The notes beneath the pieces are model-generated. The model did no database searches. It was not told the DNA's origin and was given only the letters and a program-made list of their open reading frames with translations. The translations under genes and the position numbers were made by a program. From an uncultured virus (IMG/VR IMGVR_UViG_3300032038_000020) (lineage: Duplodnaviria; Heunggongvirae; Uroviricota; Caudoviricetes), in the IMG/VR virus record IMGVR_UViG_3300032038_000020, positions 62,001-122,517 of that record: a DNA stretch of 60,517 nucleotides; one strand, 5' to 3'. Position 1 is the stretch's first letter. Each line of letters starts with the position of its first letter. Below are positions 8,992 to 59,899 of this stretch, one piece after another.

Positions 8992-9013
8992 TGTATTCTT
9001 CTAACAAACTCAC

Positions 9014-9025
9014 AACAATATAGTA
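9014..9025 (+). promoter_or_regulatory. late-type promoter motif AACH-N6-TA (representative; about 18 copies)
   Basis: Plus copies at 655, 2909, 4150, 9014, 10775, 12572, 23711, 29546, 34224, 49965, 50781, 51151, 54409; minus copies starting at 7115, 22214, 23622, 25740, 28288; all just upstream of genes or RNAs. Confidence 0.75.
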
Positions 9026-9143
9026 TGGCGGTGCAGCTATGCACTATTAGACTCTCACAGCAGTTCTCTATGTTAAAATGGACAGTTATGAGTCTAGACG
9101 AGCGATTCTTTAAGAGTTGAATCTTAAGCAGTTACCGCCACCA
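9025..9143 (+). ncRNA. candidate tRNA-like structured RNA ending in CCA
   Basis: 5' GGCGGUG pairs with 3' UACCGCC followed by ACCA; internal stems UAGACUC/GAGUCUA and GAUUC/GAAUC; AACA-N6-TA motif at 9014 and hairpin downstream. Confidence 0.55.
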
Positions 9144-9147
9144 CCTT

Positions 9148-9173
9148 TCCGTAGTGGAAATGTCCACTACGGA
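9148..9173 (+). terminator. stem-loop (terminator or processing hairpin)
   Basis: TCCGTAGTGGA-AATG-TCCACTACGGA perfect inverted repeat. Confidence 0.6.
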
Positions 9174-9257
9174 TAAGTTGTCTTAAAACAACTTTTGGCT
9201 ACATATCATACCTTTGAGTCAAGAACAATACTAAGACTCAGAAAGGAAATCGAAACA

Positions 9258-28253: not shown

Positions 28254-28412
28254 TGTTGCACCTCCTTATGTATGATTATAGTGATGTTTTCGACAAAAAA
28301 GAAACCCCGTAGGGGTTCCTCTTTCCTTTGATAAGCTAGTGTGGTCTAGCCGTTTGTGCAACCGATATTATAATCCTCCGTCGGTTAAGCGGTCTTTGAT
28401 GTGCACTTTACT

Positions 28413-29309
28413 TTACTTTATATTCCTTCTGGACGGGCGACGACAATGGCTCTCCTTTGGGATGAAGGTTAACTCGTCCTCTTCGAGTACTTCATTCGAA
28501 TGGAGATTACTAATCTCTATTCCATACTTCTTCAGCCACTTCTTTGAAGTATTATAGCCGAAGTCGTACTCTGACGAATCGTCTCCTACAGATACAGCTA
28601 AGAGAATTTCCAGTATATCTCCTATATACATCTGGAAATCTCCTACTTTCTGATACATACTTATATGCAGAGCAGCTGCTCTGTGCATGAATACGTATCG
28701 ATCTCCTCTTCTTTTGTAGAGATCTAACGACACATCTCTACATCCACTGTATCCTGTACGAACAGTAGTTTTGTATGGGTGTACTCGATCACATCTATTG
28801 TATCTATGCAGACTAGCTGTTTTGCTAGCTACATATTCTACAATTGTTCCCACTTGTGCAATTGTAGGGTCCGCACCTTTTAATTTTGTAAATTTAAGGT
28901 CATGATCGACCAGTTCTACAAGACATCTGCCTTTGGATGGGTTTCCATCCCAGTCCCATGAAGTATAATTGAAGCAGTATTTTGATTTTGTTTTTGCTGT
29001 TGTAGTTGTAGTGGTTTCCCTGTATGGTTTTGTCGGCCATCTCTGGCCTGAGACTCTGTCGAGGATATCCTCTCTGAGCTCCTCTGATGCTCGAAAACCA
29101 TCATCATTCAGTTCTGATATGGTTTCCATCCATGTGTCATCGTCTACCGCATATGAAATTCTTTCATACATATGAAAGTATAAATCGTAATACAAGTCGT
29201 GCCAAGTTAAGTTAAGATAGCTGTATGTATGTTCTAATGCGGCTATGAGAGCTATTACGATATTCTTTGTGCTGTATCCGTTTCTGTAGAGATTGAGATT
29301 AATGTTCAT
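28413..29309 (-). CDS. hypothetical protein
   Basis: 298 aa ORF; no Shine-Dalgarno; preceded by a structured leader. Confidence 0.7.
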   Translation of the reverse strand: MNINLNLYRNGYSTKNIVIALIAALEHTYSYLNLTWHDLYYDLYFHMYERISYAVDDDTWMETISELNDDGFRASEELREDILDRVSGQRWPTKPYRETTTTTTAKTKSKYCFNYTSWDWDGNPSKGRCLVELVDHDLKFTKLKGADPTIAQVGTIVEYVASKTASLHRYNRCDRVHPYKTTVRTGYSGCRDVSLDLYKRRGDRYVFMHRAAALHISMYQKVGDFQMYIGDILEILLAVSVGDDSSEYDFGYNTSKKWLKKYGIEISNLHSNEVLEEDELTFIPKESHCRRPSRRNIK

Positions 29310-29515
29310 AGTATTTGCTCAGTAGGTGCTACACGGTTGACCGACCGTCGTGCTGAGCGAATGTAGTCTCCATCTGAGACATCCTATCATAAAGGATACA
29401 CCTTTTGTTACTGGATGTAGAGGTCTGTCTTTCTCCTTAGCAGACCTTAAGATTTTTACACCCAGTGTAAGTTGGTTTAAATCTATTGGGCTTATGCCCT
29501 TAACCACTTACACTA
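29310..29515 (-). promoter_or_regulatory. ~200-nt highly structured 5' leader with potential pseudoknot
   Basis: Stems AGUGUAAG/CUUACACU, ACUGGGUGUA/UACAUCCAGU, AGGUCUG/CAGACCU, AGGUG/CACCU, AUCCU/AGGAU, GUCUC/GAGAC, ACGGU/ACCGU, GCUCAG/CUGAGC. Confidence 0.55.
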
Positions 29516-29587
29516 TTAGAATATATAGTCGAATCGTCTTACTTTAACAATCCTATAATACACACTCTATAAGGAGGAACATAGACT

Positions 29588-30307
29588 ATGAACGCTAACC
29601 GTAAGAAAGCTGAACTTTTGATCTATAAGGCCTTTGATGCTATAGATCCTACTCATGCTAACTCAGACTTCTATAAACAACTGTTCGCTGGAATGACAGA
29701 TGAGCAGTTCCTTAACTTCTGTAAGAGAAGGCTTCCCCTTAGATTACAAACTTCAGCATTTGAAAGGGAACTTACCCCAGAGAAGTGTCTTAAGGGACTC
29801 AAAGCTATAAACGTACCATTGATGGAGAAAGTGGTTAATCCGCAACTCTATGTAAACAAAGATGGTGTTCCTGTAGGAGGAGAATATGAGGCCTTCGTAG
29901 TATATCTGAACATCCCTAAGCTCAAACAGTTCGCTACTAAGAAGAGTGGTTATAACACCAACATCGATACTCGTAACCCTAAGACTGGACAGATCGTAGG
30001 TAACAGTAAGGGTATCGAGAGTGATAGAGAGCTTGAGAGTTTGGTACTTCAAGGACTCGATGATACTATCAAAGAAGTTACCAGAGCTAAGGCAGATGAT
30101 ATGGAAGCTAAGAACAAGATGTATACAATGATCAATACTACTGGTCAAGTATCATTGAAGGACTTAGAGAGTCCTAAGACTGCCCAGGTAGCTAGAACTA
30201 CAACAGATGTCTTCTTGATAGGAAGCTTTGTAATGACAAACCTGTTGGAAGAGGACTACATGACTCCATACACTCTGTCAATGAAAAAGAAAAGAATCGA
30301 GAAGTAA
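29588..30307 (+). CDS. RNA polymerase beta subunit, short C-terminal fragment (putative virion RNAP)
   Basis: KLKQFATKK...TGQ...ESDRELESLVLQGLDDTIKEVTRAKADD parallels RpoB C-terminal KL.H...TQQP...GEME...LQE.LT.KSDD. Confidence 0.72.
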   Translation: MNANRKKAELLIYKAFDAIDPTHANSDFYKQLFAGMTDEQFLNFCKRRLPLRLQTSAFERELTPEKCLKGLKAINVPLMEKVVNPQLYVNKDGVPVGGEYEAFVVYLNIPKLKQFATKKSGYNTNIDTRNPKTGQIVGNSKGIESDRELESLVLQGLDDTIKEVTRAKADDMEAKNKMYTMINTTGQVSLKDLESPKTAQVARTTTDVFLIGSFVMTNLLEEDYMTPYTLSMKKKRIEK

Positions 30308-31080: not shown

Positions 31081-31287
31081 GATAAAACCTACCTTTCATC
31101 AGTTCCTACTCTAGCGAGCTCCTACCTTTCCTCTTAGGATCATAGTCTTTTGCCGAGTAGCAAGCCAAGAACGTCAGAACTTTTCTGAACTCTTATCTTG
31201 ACTCACTATGATGATATACATTCGAAACCACCTACTTTTACAAAACAAAAAAGAACGGACTTGTCAAGATCCGTTCTCATCTCATCA

Positions 31288-50429: not shown

Positions 50430-50532
50430 TCCTGGTGAATGAAATAACTGGTGCCCGAGGGAGCGCTCCCTCGGGCGTCATTCTCGTCTCTTACAGTAGG
50501 TGTAACCATCTAATGAAAGGAGATGATATATT

Positions 50533-50766
50533 ATGACAGAACCACTCTTCAAAATGGCTGGACCTAAGTACTGTTCAAGATGCGGAACAGACGGAATAGC
50601 AATCATAGTAGTAAATACTCGTAAAGGTAAAGAAGCTCGGTGTATGCGGTGTAAGAACTGTGGTGCTGAGTTCATGATAGATTGGAGAAATCCTAAAGTT
50701 CCTAGACCTCTGTCAATGGGGTTGTATGCTAATATATGTCTAAGAGGTTTGAATGCTTATGTATAA
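50533..50766 (+). CDS. small Zn-ribbon protein
   Basis: CSRC...CKNC; GAAAGGAG RBS. Confidence 0.7.
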   Translation: MTEPLFKMAGPKYCSRCGTDGIAIIVVNTRKGKEARCMRCKNCGAEFMIDWRNPKVPRPLSMGLYANICLRGLNAYV

Positions 50767-50791
50767 CATTACACAAGCATAACATATCATT

Positions 50792-50987
50792 GACGGACGG
50801 ATAGGATAGATAGTTTCAAGTCAGAGCCTCCTCAAGAGGTTACCACTCTGCGCTTACCGATACGTATTGCGGGTGTAAATCGTCCTGTTTGAGCAGCTTG
50901 TAACAGGTGACTATTGATACCCCCTAAGTGTTCGCTCGTGTCCTTAATAAAGCCATACTTGAAGCTATCTATCGTGTCCGCTCCGTC
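50792..50987 (+). ncRNA. candidate 6S-like rod-shaped RNA (196 nt)
   Basis: 5' GACGGA-CGGAUA-GAUAGAUAGUUUCAAGU pairs with 3' ACUUGAAGCUAUCUAUC-UGUCCG-UCCGUC; central open region; apical stem; starts at +1 of AACA-N6-TG. Confidence 0.6.
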
Positions 50988-51077
50988 GGACTGCAAACTA
51001 TTCCAAAATGATAACCCAACTTCAATTCTAGCATTGGTAAACCTTTACTCATGGTTTACAAAACATCTTAATACTCA

Positions 51078-51110
51078 GGGGTCCCGAAAGGGACTCCATC
51101 TCTTTTTTTT
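51078..51110 (+). terminator. intrinsic terminator
   Basis: GGGGTCCC-GAAA-GGGACTCC plus T run. Confidence 0.85.
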
Positions 51111-51182
51111 CTTCATTCGACTGTTCATAATCAATCCAAACACGTACGTTAACAATACTATAATCTAGCGAGAAAGGACGTT

Positions 51183-53933
51183 GTGAACGTTATGCGTATA
51201 AACTACTTAGAACTGCACAATTATGCAGGTATATACAATGGTATGGAGCTCAACGAGCTTGTTATCGACTTCTCCAAGTGCCAACACAAGATATGTCTCA
51301 TTAAGGGAGACAATGGTTCTGGTAAGAGCACAATCATGAAAGCACTTAATCCTCTTCCAGATCCAGCATCAGTATTCATTCCAGGATTAGTAGGATACAA
51401 GTGTATCATTTATCTTGACGAGTACACTGGTATCATGTATAAGATAGAGTATCTGCACGATGTAAACTCTAAGGGTGACAGAGCTACTCCTAAGGGTCAC
51501 ATCTACGAGATCACTCAATCAGCAGTGATCGATCTTAATCCAAGTGGTAATGTATCTTCTGCTAAAGAAATCATCTACGACAGGTTCAATCTTGACCCTT
51601 GTTATCTGTCTCTTACACAGCTTAGTAGCAATAAGAGGGGTATGGCAGATATGAAACCTGCCGAGAGAAAGAAGTTTGTCAACAGCATCCTAAACAATGT
51701 AGATGCATACAATGACATGTATAAGGTACTTAGCAAGAAGGCTGTCATGTACAAGGGAGTAATCAAGAACATCGAGAGTCGTCTCAGTACTATAGGAGAT
51801 GTAGGTAAGCTTGACCTTAGAATACAGAATCTCACATCTACAGTTAAACAGGCAGATGAGCTGCTCAACAATGAAAAGGATCTTAAGTCTAAGGCAGAGG
51901 CAGTTATACTTACTCTTGACCCAGATGGTACAAAGAACCAGAAGTATCTCGATGTCGTCAAGGATATGACTAAATACGAGAATGACCTCAACACATTCAC
52001 CACTATGACTGATCATAAGTATAGAGGACGAGAAGTACAGAGACTTGATCACAATAATCTTATCACTCAGATAGAACTTGCTAAACAGAAGAAGAGTTCA
52101 CTCAATACAGAGATTGGAACTCTGATGAGTAAGACTGAGATTGATACTATAGAGATCAACCAGAAGAGACAGAAGCTTAACGATGTTAACAGCGGTGAGT
52201 CTCTTGACTATCTAAGGGATCTTAAGTCTAAGCTTCAGGATAGATTCAGCGAGATTAGAGGAGAGCTCAAGAAGCTCAACATCAACACACTCGAGATTCC
52301 ATTCACTAAGGATACACTAGTACAGTGTATCACTACTTTATGTGAAGTGAGAGATAGACTCTCTTCTCCAGACTTTGCAGATATAGAGTTTCTTGTAGAG
52401 TGTGTATCCGAGTTTGGTCACGAGAGAAATGGCGAGATATCTTCACTCTCTATCATGAAAGCTGCGGCTAGTTCAATGGAAGAGCATAAAAAGACAATCG
52501 ACGATGCTAAGCAAAAGCTTGCCGAGAAGGAAGCTCTTAGAAGATCATTCGAGGGTCTGTTAGAGAATAGACCTAAAGAGTGTCATATAGACGATTGTCA
52601 CTTCATCGCTAATGCAGTGTTGAAGAAACGTGAGTATGAAGAATGCTATAATGAAGACTATGAAACTATCATCAGAGAGGCTACTGCTAACTACAATGGT
52701 GATAAACTCGTATGGGAACATATGCAGAATGTAGAGAATGGTTTCCGTGAACTTCAGATGCTTAAGGCTAAAGTGAATGGTATATCATCTACTCTCAAGC
52801 TCATCACTCCTAAAGAGTACATGCCTGCTTACGACTTCATAGTCAACTTCAACTATACTTCAGATAGTAAAGTAGTCAGGACCATAAACACTTTCAATCA
52901 GTATGTAGACTTCCTCTACAATCATCTCTATATAGCTAACTCCTTCGAGGAGTATAAGGATATACGAGAGAATCTTATCAAGGTACAGGGAGAGATTGAA
53001 AAGCTTGAGTCTAATGAACAGCTTATCAATATGCTTACCGATGATATTAACAAGCTTCAGGAAGAGCTTAACGAAACTCTTCAGAAGACTCAGAACAACA
53101 GGTTCGAGATAACACAACTCGATATAACTATATCTGACACTGAGAGAAAGCTTGAAGAACTTCAGACTTATAGAGAAGATATGTTCAAGCTCGACGAACT
53201 TAAGGAAAAAGTTAAAGAGCTCAATGCAGAGCTATACAATCTCGAGAATTCCATGTCTAAGCTGTTGGAAGCTAAGAAGACTATACATGAATGTGAAGCA
53301 AGCATCAAAGAGATCGAAGAGAAGCTCATTCCAATGAAAAAAGAATTGGCTGATCTGGAGACATCTAGAAGACTCTATGGCTCATACATAGACGATCTCA
53401 AGACCAACAAAGAGATGCTCAACAAGATAGAAGTAATCAAGTACTATACTTCTCCTACTACTGGTATACAGTTGATATTCGCTACACTCTATCTGAGTAA
53501 GATTCTTGAGAAAGCTAACTGGATGCTGTCTGGTCTTTTCGGAGGAGCATTCAATATACTTCCATTCATCATTACAGAAGATGAGTTCAGGATTCCTATA
53601 GCAGTACAGGGTGGACTCAATCACGATGATATAACTTCTATGTCATCTGCTCAAATAGCATTGATCAGTATGATTATCAGTATCAGTATGCTTAGTCAGG
53701 TGTCTACTAGTATGAATATCATAGTAGGAGACGAGATAGACGCTTCATTGGACACAGAGAATAGAAGACGTTTCTTCGACATTCTGTTGGGTCTAATGGA
53801 GATGGTCAATGCAAGTCAGAGTATACTGATCTCTCACAATAGTGAGTACACACAGAACGAATGTGATGTCATCTGGTTAAGAAACAAAGAACACATCACA
53901 GAAGCAGGTAACGTAATCTGGAGCTTTGAATAA
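51183..53933 (+). CDS. sbcC: SbcC/Rad50-like SMC ATPase
   Basis: GDNGSGKST, long coiled coil, MSSAQ signature, IIVGDEIDASLD, ISH. Confidence 0.88.
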   Translation: MNVMRINYLELHNYAGIYNGMELNELVIDFSKCQHKICLIKGDNGSGKSTIMKALNPLPDPASVFIPGLVGYKCIIYLDEYTGIMYKIEYLHDVNSKGDRATPKGHIYEITQSAVIDLNPSGNVSSAKEIIYDRFNLDPCYLSLTQLSSNKRGMADMKPAERKKFVNSILNNVDAYNDMYKVLSKKAVMYKGVIKNIESRLSTIGDVGKLDLRIQNLTSTVKQADELLNNEKDLKSKAEAVILTLDPDGTKNQKYLDVVKDMTKYENDLNTFTTMTDHKYRGREVQRLDHNNLITQIELAKQKKSSLNTEIGTLMSKTEIDTIEINQKRQKLNDVNSGESLDYLRDLKSKLQDRFSEIRGELKKLNINTLEIPFTKDTLVQCITTLCEVRDRLSSPDFADIEFLVECVSEFGHERNGEISSLSIMKAAASSMEEHKKTIDDAKQKLAEKEALRRSFEGLLENRPKECHIDDCHFIANAVLKKREYEECYNEDYETIIREATANYNGDKLVWEHMQNVENGFRELQMLKAKVNGISSTLKLITPKEYMPAYDFIVNFNYTSDSKVVRTINTFNQYVDFLYNHLYIANSFEEYKDIRENLIKVQGEIEKLESNEQLINMLTDDINKLQEELNETLQKTQNNRFEITQLDITISDTERKLEELQTYREDMFKLDELKEKVKELNAELYNLENSMSKLLEAKKTIHECEASIKEIEEKLIPMKKELADLETSRRLYGSYIDDLKTNKEMLNKIEVIKYYTSPTTGIQLIFATLYLSKILEKANWMLSGLFGGAFNILPFIITEDEFRIPIAVQGGLNHDDITSMSSAQIALISMIISISMLSQVSTSMNIIVGDEIDASLDTENRRRFFDILLGLMEMVNASQSILISHNSEYTQNECDVIWLRNKEHITEAGNVIWSFE

Positions 53934-59824: not shown

Positions 59825-59899
59825 TGGTTGGGGCAGCGGGGATCGAACCCACGGATGACAGAGTCAAAGTCTGTTGCCTTACCGCTTGGCTATGCCCCA
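59825..59899 (-). tRNA. tRNA-Gln(UUG) with encoded CCA
   Basis: Reverse complement TGGGGCATAGCCAAGCGGTAAGGC-ACAGA CTTTGAC TCTGT-...GGTTCGATCC...GCCCCAACCA. Confidence 0.95.

Follow-up and report, generated by a model that had tools for sequence, protein, structure and literature searches.

A conserved multi-helix RNA leader ahead of Shine-Dalgarno-less early genes in a probable AR9-like jumbo phage

How is translation started on a phage gene that lacks a Shine-Dalgarno (SD) sequence, lies behind a heavily folded leader and is surrounded by genes with strong SDs? This question is raised by a 298-aa ORF in the virus record IMGVR_UViG_3300032038_000020 (G000), which is 122.5 kb long and about 50% complete. 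We analyzed the second half of the record, a stretch of 60,517 nucleotides (positions 62,001 to 122,517) that we call the window. Among other proteins, it encodes a piece of the RNA polymerase beta subunit, a prohead protease, a UvsX-like recombinase and a tubulin-like protein. Since the RNA polymerase piece has its best INPHARED match in Bacillus phage vB_BsuM-Goe21 (36%) and the close relatives of G000 are 229-232 kb in length, the virus is, as judged from these similarities, an AR9/PBS1-like jumbo phage. The strong use of SDs and the AR9 link suggest a Bacillota host.

The leader and its gene lie on the minus strand, where all of the sequence features named in the initial annotation are present at the places given there (Table 1). 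The early-type motif noted upstream of the leader agrees with the AR9 early consensus in 10 of its 13 positions (PMC5312081), and it also precedes other early-looking genes. AR9 early promoters consist of an AT-rich motif, 6 nt and a G at +1 (PMC5312081). As the motif, the 6 nt and the G are all found here, the transcript is predicted to start at G29511, giving a predicted leader of 202 nt (29511-29310). The leader start proposed earlier, 29527, falls inside the promoter.

Table 1 Features of the leader, its gene and their surroundings. Positions refer to the window unless a locus is named.
Feature	Position	Strand	Remarks
Divergent RNA polymerase beta-subunit piece	29588..30307	+	phrog_3233, E 2.7e-34; site marker in relatives
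AR9-type early (virion RNA polymerase) promoter motif	29518..29530	-	followed by 6 nt, then predicted G+1 at 29511
P0, 5'-terminal hairpin domain from predicted +1	29467..29511	-	predicted in the window
P1, long stem with large asymmetric A/U-rich internal loop and apical loop	29411..29465	-	
Invariant GGAGA in P1 apical loop, AAGGAGAA	29438-29431	-	7/7 copies
Core junction P2-P6	29324..29403	-	
P2, AGGUG/CACCU	29403-29399/29328-29324	-	
P3, hairpin	29397-29381	-	
P4, hairpin	29380-29366	-	
P5, UACA/UGUA	29365-29362/29333-29330	-	
P6, CGG/CCG	29347-29345/29336-29334	-	conserved GUCAA loop
P7, GCUCAG/CUGAGC	29358-29353/29322-29317 (29317..29358)	-	
Variable A/U-rich spacer before AUG	29310..29316	-	length 7 nt in 7/7 copies
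298-aa orphan ORF	28413..29309	-	early cassette gene, dispensable
Intrinsic terminator closing the cassette	28291..28319	-	GC-rich hairpin and U run
Site-2 H-type pseudoknot	L002:725-890(-), L003:2077-2285(+), L004, L005, L076; G000:C1:7037-7261		right after the stop codon

A second copy of the element, 71% identical, was found in the same genome (G000:C1:7875-8019), with the same promoter type upstream and a 201-aa ORF downstream that is unrelated to the 298-aa ORF. Pattern and model searches gave seven distinct sequences in six records, two at the window's site (site 1; the window and L013) and five at a second site (site 2; L002-L005 and L076), with L006, L063, L070, L071 and L080 excluded as repeats of known sequences. 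P0 is also predicted in the site-2 copies, where its sequence differs, and its 5' half is retained in a relative with an empty site. The model R1 matched 5 of 18 related records. Among 22 metagenome and 6 GTDB pattern matches taken together, five scored, four as known repeats and one as a new copy (L076); the remaining 23 failed to score and were set aside as chance matches. Two further sets of viral pattern matches (n = 50 and n = 31) contained 4 and 10 scoring sequences, all already-known copies, and 47 stretches spanning four whole records held only three known copies. Nothing was found on scoring five loci of distant phages against the element or in the P0002 scan of viral contigs, and the INPHARED phages gave no nucleotide match to it. 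Within these searches, the element is confined to one narrow clade, and for this reason the seven copies are not independent.

Comparison with known RNA families gave no assignment. In the whole window, a tRNA gene (59828-59899, minus strand) was the sole Rfam 15 match at the family threshold. A search of 29200-29650 at E<=10 returned only three weak matches, all on the plus strand (E 4-8), and eight related loci searched at E<=2 had no match on the element. The proposed identity of the leader as a riboswitch or ribozyme finds no support in these family searches. The motif is undescribed in titles and the openings of abstracts, and its core 13-mer occurs in none of the full texts covered, although Fremin et al. 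2023 (PMC10690425) may list it anonymously among their candidate alignments. Elsewhere in the window, two long intergenic stretches (50430-51191 and 8992-9257) appear structured and have no Rfam match at the gathering score.

The dense structure attributed to the leader is borne out by comparison with shuffled sequences. The region 29300-29540 folds with z = -3.0 (1 of 200 shuffles equally good) and the predicted 202-nt leader with z = -4.1. In a seven-sequence alignment fitted to the model, 96.7% of cells are paired and both partners have changed in 14 of 43 pairs, compared to 10 of 43 in an unfitted MAFFT alignment of six sequences. None of 500 shuffles had as many both-sided changes, and slid registers gave at most four such pairs. 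These changes are located in P1 (4/9 pairs in the stem, 4/6 in the upper stem), P3 (3/5), P4 (1/5) and P6 (2/3), and are absent from P2 and P5. The peripheral helices covary, and it is in the junction, P7 and the GUCAA loop that invariant bases are concentrated. Of the three hairpins originally placed in the multibranch loop, the third is a covarying stem of 3 bp, capped by the GUCAA loop, that can stack on the UACA/UGUA helix. The latter, a 4-bp helix (P5), was missing from the earlier description. L013, the copy with the interrupted ORF, is alone in having P5 mismatches and a G-U pair in P7, which is a single case.

P7 is 100% paired in the seven copies, with one G-C to G-U change and no double change, and both G000 copies contain it in their MFE folds. 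P2, P5 and P7 are nearly invariant and show one-sided changes only. Formed together, P2 and P7 would create a pseudoknot. However, an alternative nested pairing, GGUGU/ACAUU plus P7, is also 96.7% paired, and folds containing P2 alone or P7 alone come within about 0-4 kcal/mol, in a calculation in which two of the seven cores were incomplete. The pseudoknot fold pairs more of the invariant bases, whereas 11 near-invariant bases have no partner in the nested fold. When single sequences are shuffled, 21-44% of the shuffles contain a 6-bp match of the tail to another part of the leader. Since P2 and P7 are without double changes and a pseudoknot-free fold scores equally, the pseudoknot is plausible but unproven. 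The crossing GCUCAG/CUGAGC pairing of the initial annotation therefore stands as a complementarity, invariant in 7/7 copies, and not as a demonstrated crossing.

We compared the start of the gene with those of the rest of the record. Pairing to the anti-SD stronger than -6 kcal/mol was found for 98 of 104 ORFs of the 122-kb record, in a survey that picked ORF starts by their best SD and is thus biased towards finding one. The six remaining ORFs are the window gene, the second-copy gene, one contig-edge ORF and three that are probably shadow ORFs, which leaves the two element-led genes as the record's only clear cases without an SD. The AUG at 29309 pairs with -1.9 kcal/mol relative to a genome median of -12.0, and the element-led AUGs together range from -1.9 to -2.5 kcal/mol. 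In a list of 98 genes, the single weak outlier is a gene read there on the wrong strand, which scores -11.8 in the 104-ORF survey. The initial observation of a gene without an SD among SD-rich genes is therefore correct, as is that of a pairing which ends 7 nt before its AUG. An AUG follows P7 by exactly 7 nt in all seven copies, though the spacer and the N-termini vary. Among 98 SD-led genes, 58 have a spacer of 7-8 nt and 82 have one of 6-9 nt, which indicates that the 3' strand of P7 occupies the SD register. All copies have A at -3 and U at -1 of the spacer (genome-wide, 46/98 and 51/98), and the element start regions fold weakly (0.0 to -3.8, compared to a mean of -4.5, sd 2.5). An SD-like sequence is found further upstream, as the invariant GGAGA of the otherwise variable P1 apical loop, at 117-123 nt before the AUG and with an anti-SD pairing of -6.4 to -8.3 kcal/mol. 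No start codon lies 4-12 nt after GGAG in four of seven copies, and the other three have an ATG at 11 nt.

The 298-aa ORF has no Pfam or PHROG match, and Atlas and PDB-sequence searches were blank. It has 109 relatives at E<=0.001, and its N-terminus aligns with P0004. A first structure model had a pLDDT of 39.8 and a second of 78.8; approximately residues 105-290 form a confident predicted domain, with pLDDT >90 for 158 residues. This part contains a conserved R-x-G-x-S-G-C motif and has about 100 relatives. Searches with the model in Foldseek and VIA revealed no clear fold match (best Z 5.1) and no nuclease or toxin fold. At site 2, the ORFs of L003 and L004 differ by 28/15/75 by codon position. 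These differences indicate purifying selection on the site-2 ORF and, together with the 109 relatives and the conserved N-terminus of the 298-aa ORF, suggest that the element-led ORFs are translated. The two ORF families behind the leader are unrelated (hhalign probability 0.3%).

Site 1 is filled in G000, and the core and ORF are absent from it in G002 and G017. G001 has the same promoter and 5' hairpin start at this site, followed by a diverged core and an ORF that is 37-40% identical and interrupted by a stop and a frame change, next to an RNA polymerase gene that is 97% identical. In G015/G016, a homologue of the 298-aa ORF is preceded by a different leader with a true SD. This cassette exchange, and the homologue behind an SD-bearing leader, imply that leader and ORF are separable modules. 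The element also accompanies a second ORF family, and the G015/G016 homologue is found without it. One RNA-run contig skips 28307-29479, and the RNA-run contigs give no cover of the cassette. A contig of run X5 departs from the window at 29305, just past the AUG, into other sequence in which the frame is open over 30 letters, suggesting a further leader copy before another ORF.

An H-type pseudoknot is located behind the site-2 ORFs. It is 100% paired in five sequences, 7 of its 12 pairs change on both sides, and it has no Rfam match; a long hairpin and then a terminator lie downstream. In four of the five site-2 copies (L003, L004, L005 and L076), a trailer segment is complementary to the P4 loop and the P4/P5 strand of the leader over 9-12 Watson-Crick pairs. 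Matches as long were obtained in 29, 1, 0 and 12 of 200 shuffles, respectively, so that the pairing is significant in two copies, and one double change was seen, in L005. In the same four copies, the segment also resembles the anti-SD end of 16S rRNA. Neither L002 nor the window's site has this segment, which makes it an optional add-on.

Structured leaders of other kinds were also observed. Another early leader of the window (31081-31204, minus strand; 124 nt) is also structured, differs from the element and carries an SD; two similar copies of it occur in G002. A multi-copy leader family precedes variable ORFs in G007 (L099, L100, L105, L106), L014 and L015; it has an apparent pseudoknot and a partly hidden SD, and the distance from AGGY to AUG is 7 nt in 5/5 complete copies. 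A third family, with three copies in G015 (L113, L117, L119/L218), carries GGAG in the loop of a GGGC/GCCC hairpin immediately upstream of the AUG, and one of its members precedes the homologue of the 298-aa ORF. A structured RNA of 190-250 nt behind an early-type promoter is conserved between G001 (C1:226329, plus strand) and G002 (C1:33383, minus strand), and its first 180 nt show no clear start of an ORF. More distant phages contain other structured leaders at site 1 and elsewhere, with SDs partly hidden.

We tentatively favor, as a reading that falls somewhat short of probable, that the leader of a swappable early-gene cassette governs initiation by its structure and so replaces the SD. 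The cassette would comprise the promoter, the leader, a variable orphan ORF and the terminator. The virion RNA polymerase would start at G29511, and P0 would cap the 5' end of the transcript. The core would then fold such that P7 stops 7 nt short of the AUG, in the place usually taken by the SD/anti-SD helix, with the A-rich start region staying weakly structured and open. The GGAGA loop of P1 may act as a remote anchor for the 16S anti-SD, and ribosomes bound in this way could initiate efficiently. Structure-driven initiation was among the possibilities named at the outset, and it is indirectly supported by the fixed 7-nt spacing to an SD-less AUG, by the purifying selection on the ORF and by the lack of other clear SD-less genes in the record. 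Weakly structured AUGs can, however, initiate without any helper. We consider a natural bacterial IRES-like element somewhat unlikely; here the pseudoknot helix would replace the SD/anti-SD helix on the 30S platform and the GGAG loop would hold the anti-SD, and at site 2 the trailer may pair back and switch the core off once the transcript is complete. The combination that such an element would share with IRESs, no SD and a fixed distance from structure to AUG, is present in 7/7 copies. The best-known claim of structure-driven initiation in bacteria concerns the dicistrovirus IGR IRES in E. coli; its activity there has since been attributed to S1 and an SD-like element, its tertiary structure not being needed (PMC9458429), and for this reason the structure-driven reading is to be treated with caution.

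The near-equivalence of the two folds could also reflect a two-state translational switch, an unlikely explanation in our view, in which the core binds a metabolite, a signalling nucleotide or a protein and turns the gene on or off by changing from one fold (P2/P5) to the other (GGUGU/ACAUU plus P7). These folds are mutually exclusive, both conserved and nearly isoenergetic, the invariant junction, P7 and GUCAA loop lie amid a covarying periphery, and the trailer pairing at site 2 could bear on P4/P5. Translational riboswitches hide the SD at the position that P7 occupies here, but there is no SD under P7 (-1.9 to -2.5 kcal/mol), and no riboswitch was matched in Rfam even at E<=10. Furthermore, two unrelated ORF families show no ligand logic, and CsrA is absent from 3/3 records searched, in which controls were detected. 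The SD-like loop and the 5' hairpin are accounted for differently if the leader stabilizes and dampens, which we regard as distinctly unlikely. They would protect the early mRNA from RNase J1, the SD-less AUG would be weakly read and a possibly harmful early protein kept low, with the core inactive in ribosome placement. In Bacilli, mRNAs are known to be stabilized by an SD that has no start codon and by occlusion of the 5' end (PMC3997798), and the lack of a start codon 4-12 nt after GGAG in four of seven copies fits this role, as do the other structured early leaders of related phages with partly hidden SDs. Left unexplained are the position of the invariant core at the 3' end of the leader and the exact P7-AUG distance in 7/7 copies.

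This same distance, with the AUG always 7 nt behind the element, also argues against a new self-cleaving ribozyme or a released ncRNA whose ORF is a passenger or is translated after cleavage. Such an RNA might be expected from the compact multi-helix core with its many invariant bases, and ribozymes in the 5' UTRs of fungal and plant viruses can serve initiation (PMC13725137). Yet there is no terminator between element and ORF and no Rfam ribozyme or intron match, and we deem it very unlikely. Group I introns have an invariant guanosine-binding P7 helix and a P3-P8 core, and interrupt a gene. The element contains a GAGACUAYA word, which we take to resemble the group I P7 strand. A group I intron was rejected: the word is changed in 2/7 copies (L002 and L013), its partner strand is absent behind the window ORF, and there is no Rfam match and no split gene. 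A group I intron remnant, an HDV-like ribozyme, a T-box and a tRNA mimic were likewise rejected or unsupported when judged by the features of these classes. Finally, the initial annotation proposed a separate ncRNA that partners the orphan protein; IscB/omega RNA and type III toxin-antitoxin systems are arrangements of this kind. The RNA does lie immediately before an orphan ORF, whose product has a predicted domain that is conserved. However, two unrelated ORF families share it, the G015/G016 homologue has a different leader with an SD, and the separability of leader and ORF thus speaks against a dedicated RNA-protein pair, which we find extremely improbable. OMEGA/HEARO and type III toxin-antitoxin RNAs were rejected, as the element is not co-inherited with one protein family.

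In the portions of the literature covered here, a fold-dependent natural initiation element has not been established for bacterial ribosomes. The leader offers a clean natural test, in that two clear SD-less genes share a fold of 150 nt whose distance to the AUG is fixed. The leader is also short and portable, already serving two unrelated ORFs. If the IRES-like reading were true, a strongly SD-dependent host ribosome would start at an SD-less AUG. If the switch were true, the element would represent a phage riboswitch of a new class, with early genes as its targets.

Among known systems, SAM-II and preQ1-II are translational pseudoknot riboswitches with the 3' pseudoknot strand in the SD register before the AUG. 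The element differs from them in that its 3' strand holds no SD, it has no Rfam match and no ligand-related gene is present. If initiation by structure holds, the leader would be similar to viral IRESs, such as the dicistrovirus IGR and HCV-type IRESs, in combining a pseudoknotted domain, set at a constant distance ahead of the start codon, with a G-rich loop that can base-pair to small-subunit rRNA. It is distinct from them in its bacterial host and its lack of sequence or Rfam similarity, and it is not a member of a known IRES class. The cryIIIA start codon is provided with a strong SD, which the element-led phage genes lack. The GGAGA loop resembles STAB-SD and hbs in being an SD-like sequence within a 5' UTR, and in four of seven copies also in having no start codon of its own (PMC3997798). 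B. subtilis hbs also has a structured 5' UTR and a 14-bp pairing between its 5' and 3' UTRs that resembles the site-2 trailer; the start codon of hbs carries a strong SD, in contrast to the element-led phage genes (PMC5737220). AR9 shares the early promoter motif, and the available part of its description includes no structured SD-less leader (PMC5312081). A parallel in gene arrangement is offered by the PeSL (promoter-early stem-loop) cassettes, which shuffle orphan genes in the T4-type phages RB49 and phi1 (PMC2839356). In both, an early promoter and an RNA structure head non-essential orphan genes that are exchanged or lost between close relatives. PeSLs are short terminators with sigma70-like promoters, whereas the cassettes here have an AR9-type promoter and a multi-helix leader of 180-200 nt, in which, by inspection, no U run follows the core in 7/7 copies. 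The element is a real, undescribed RNA motif, and a variant of the phage early-leader kind.
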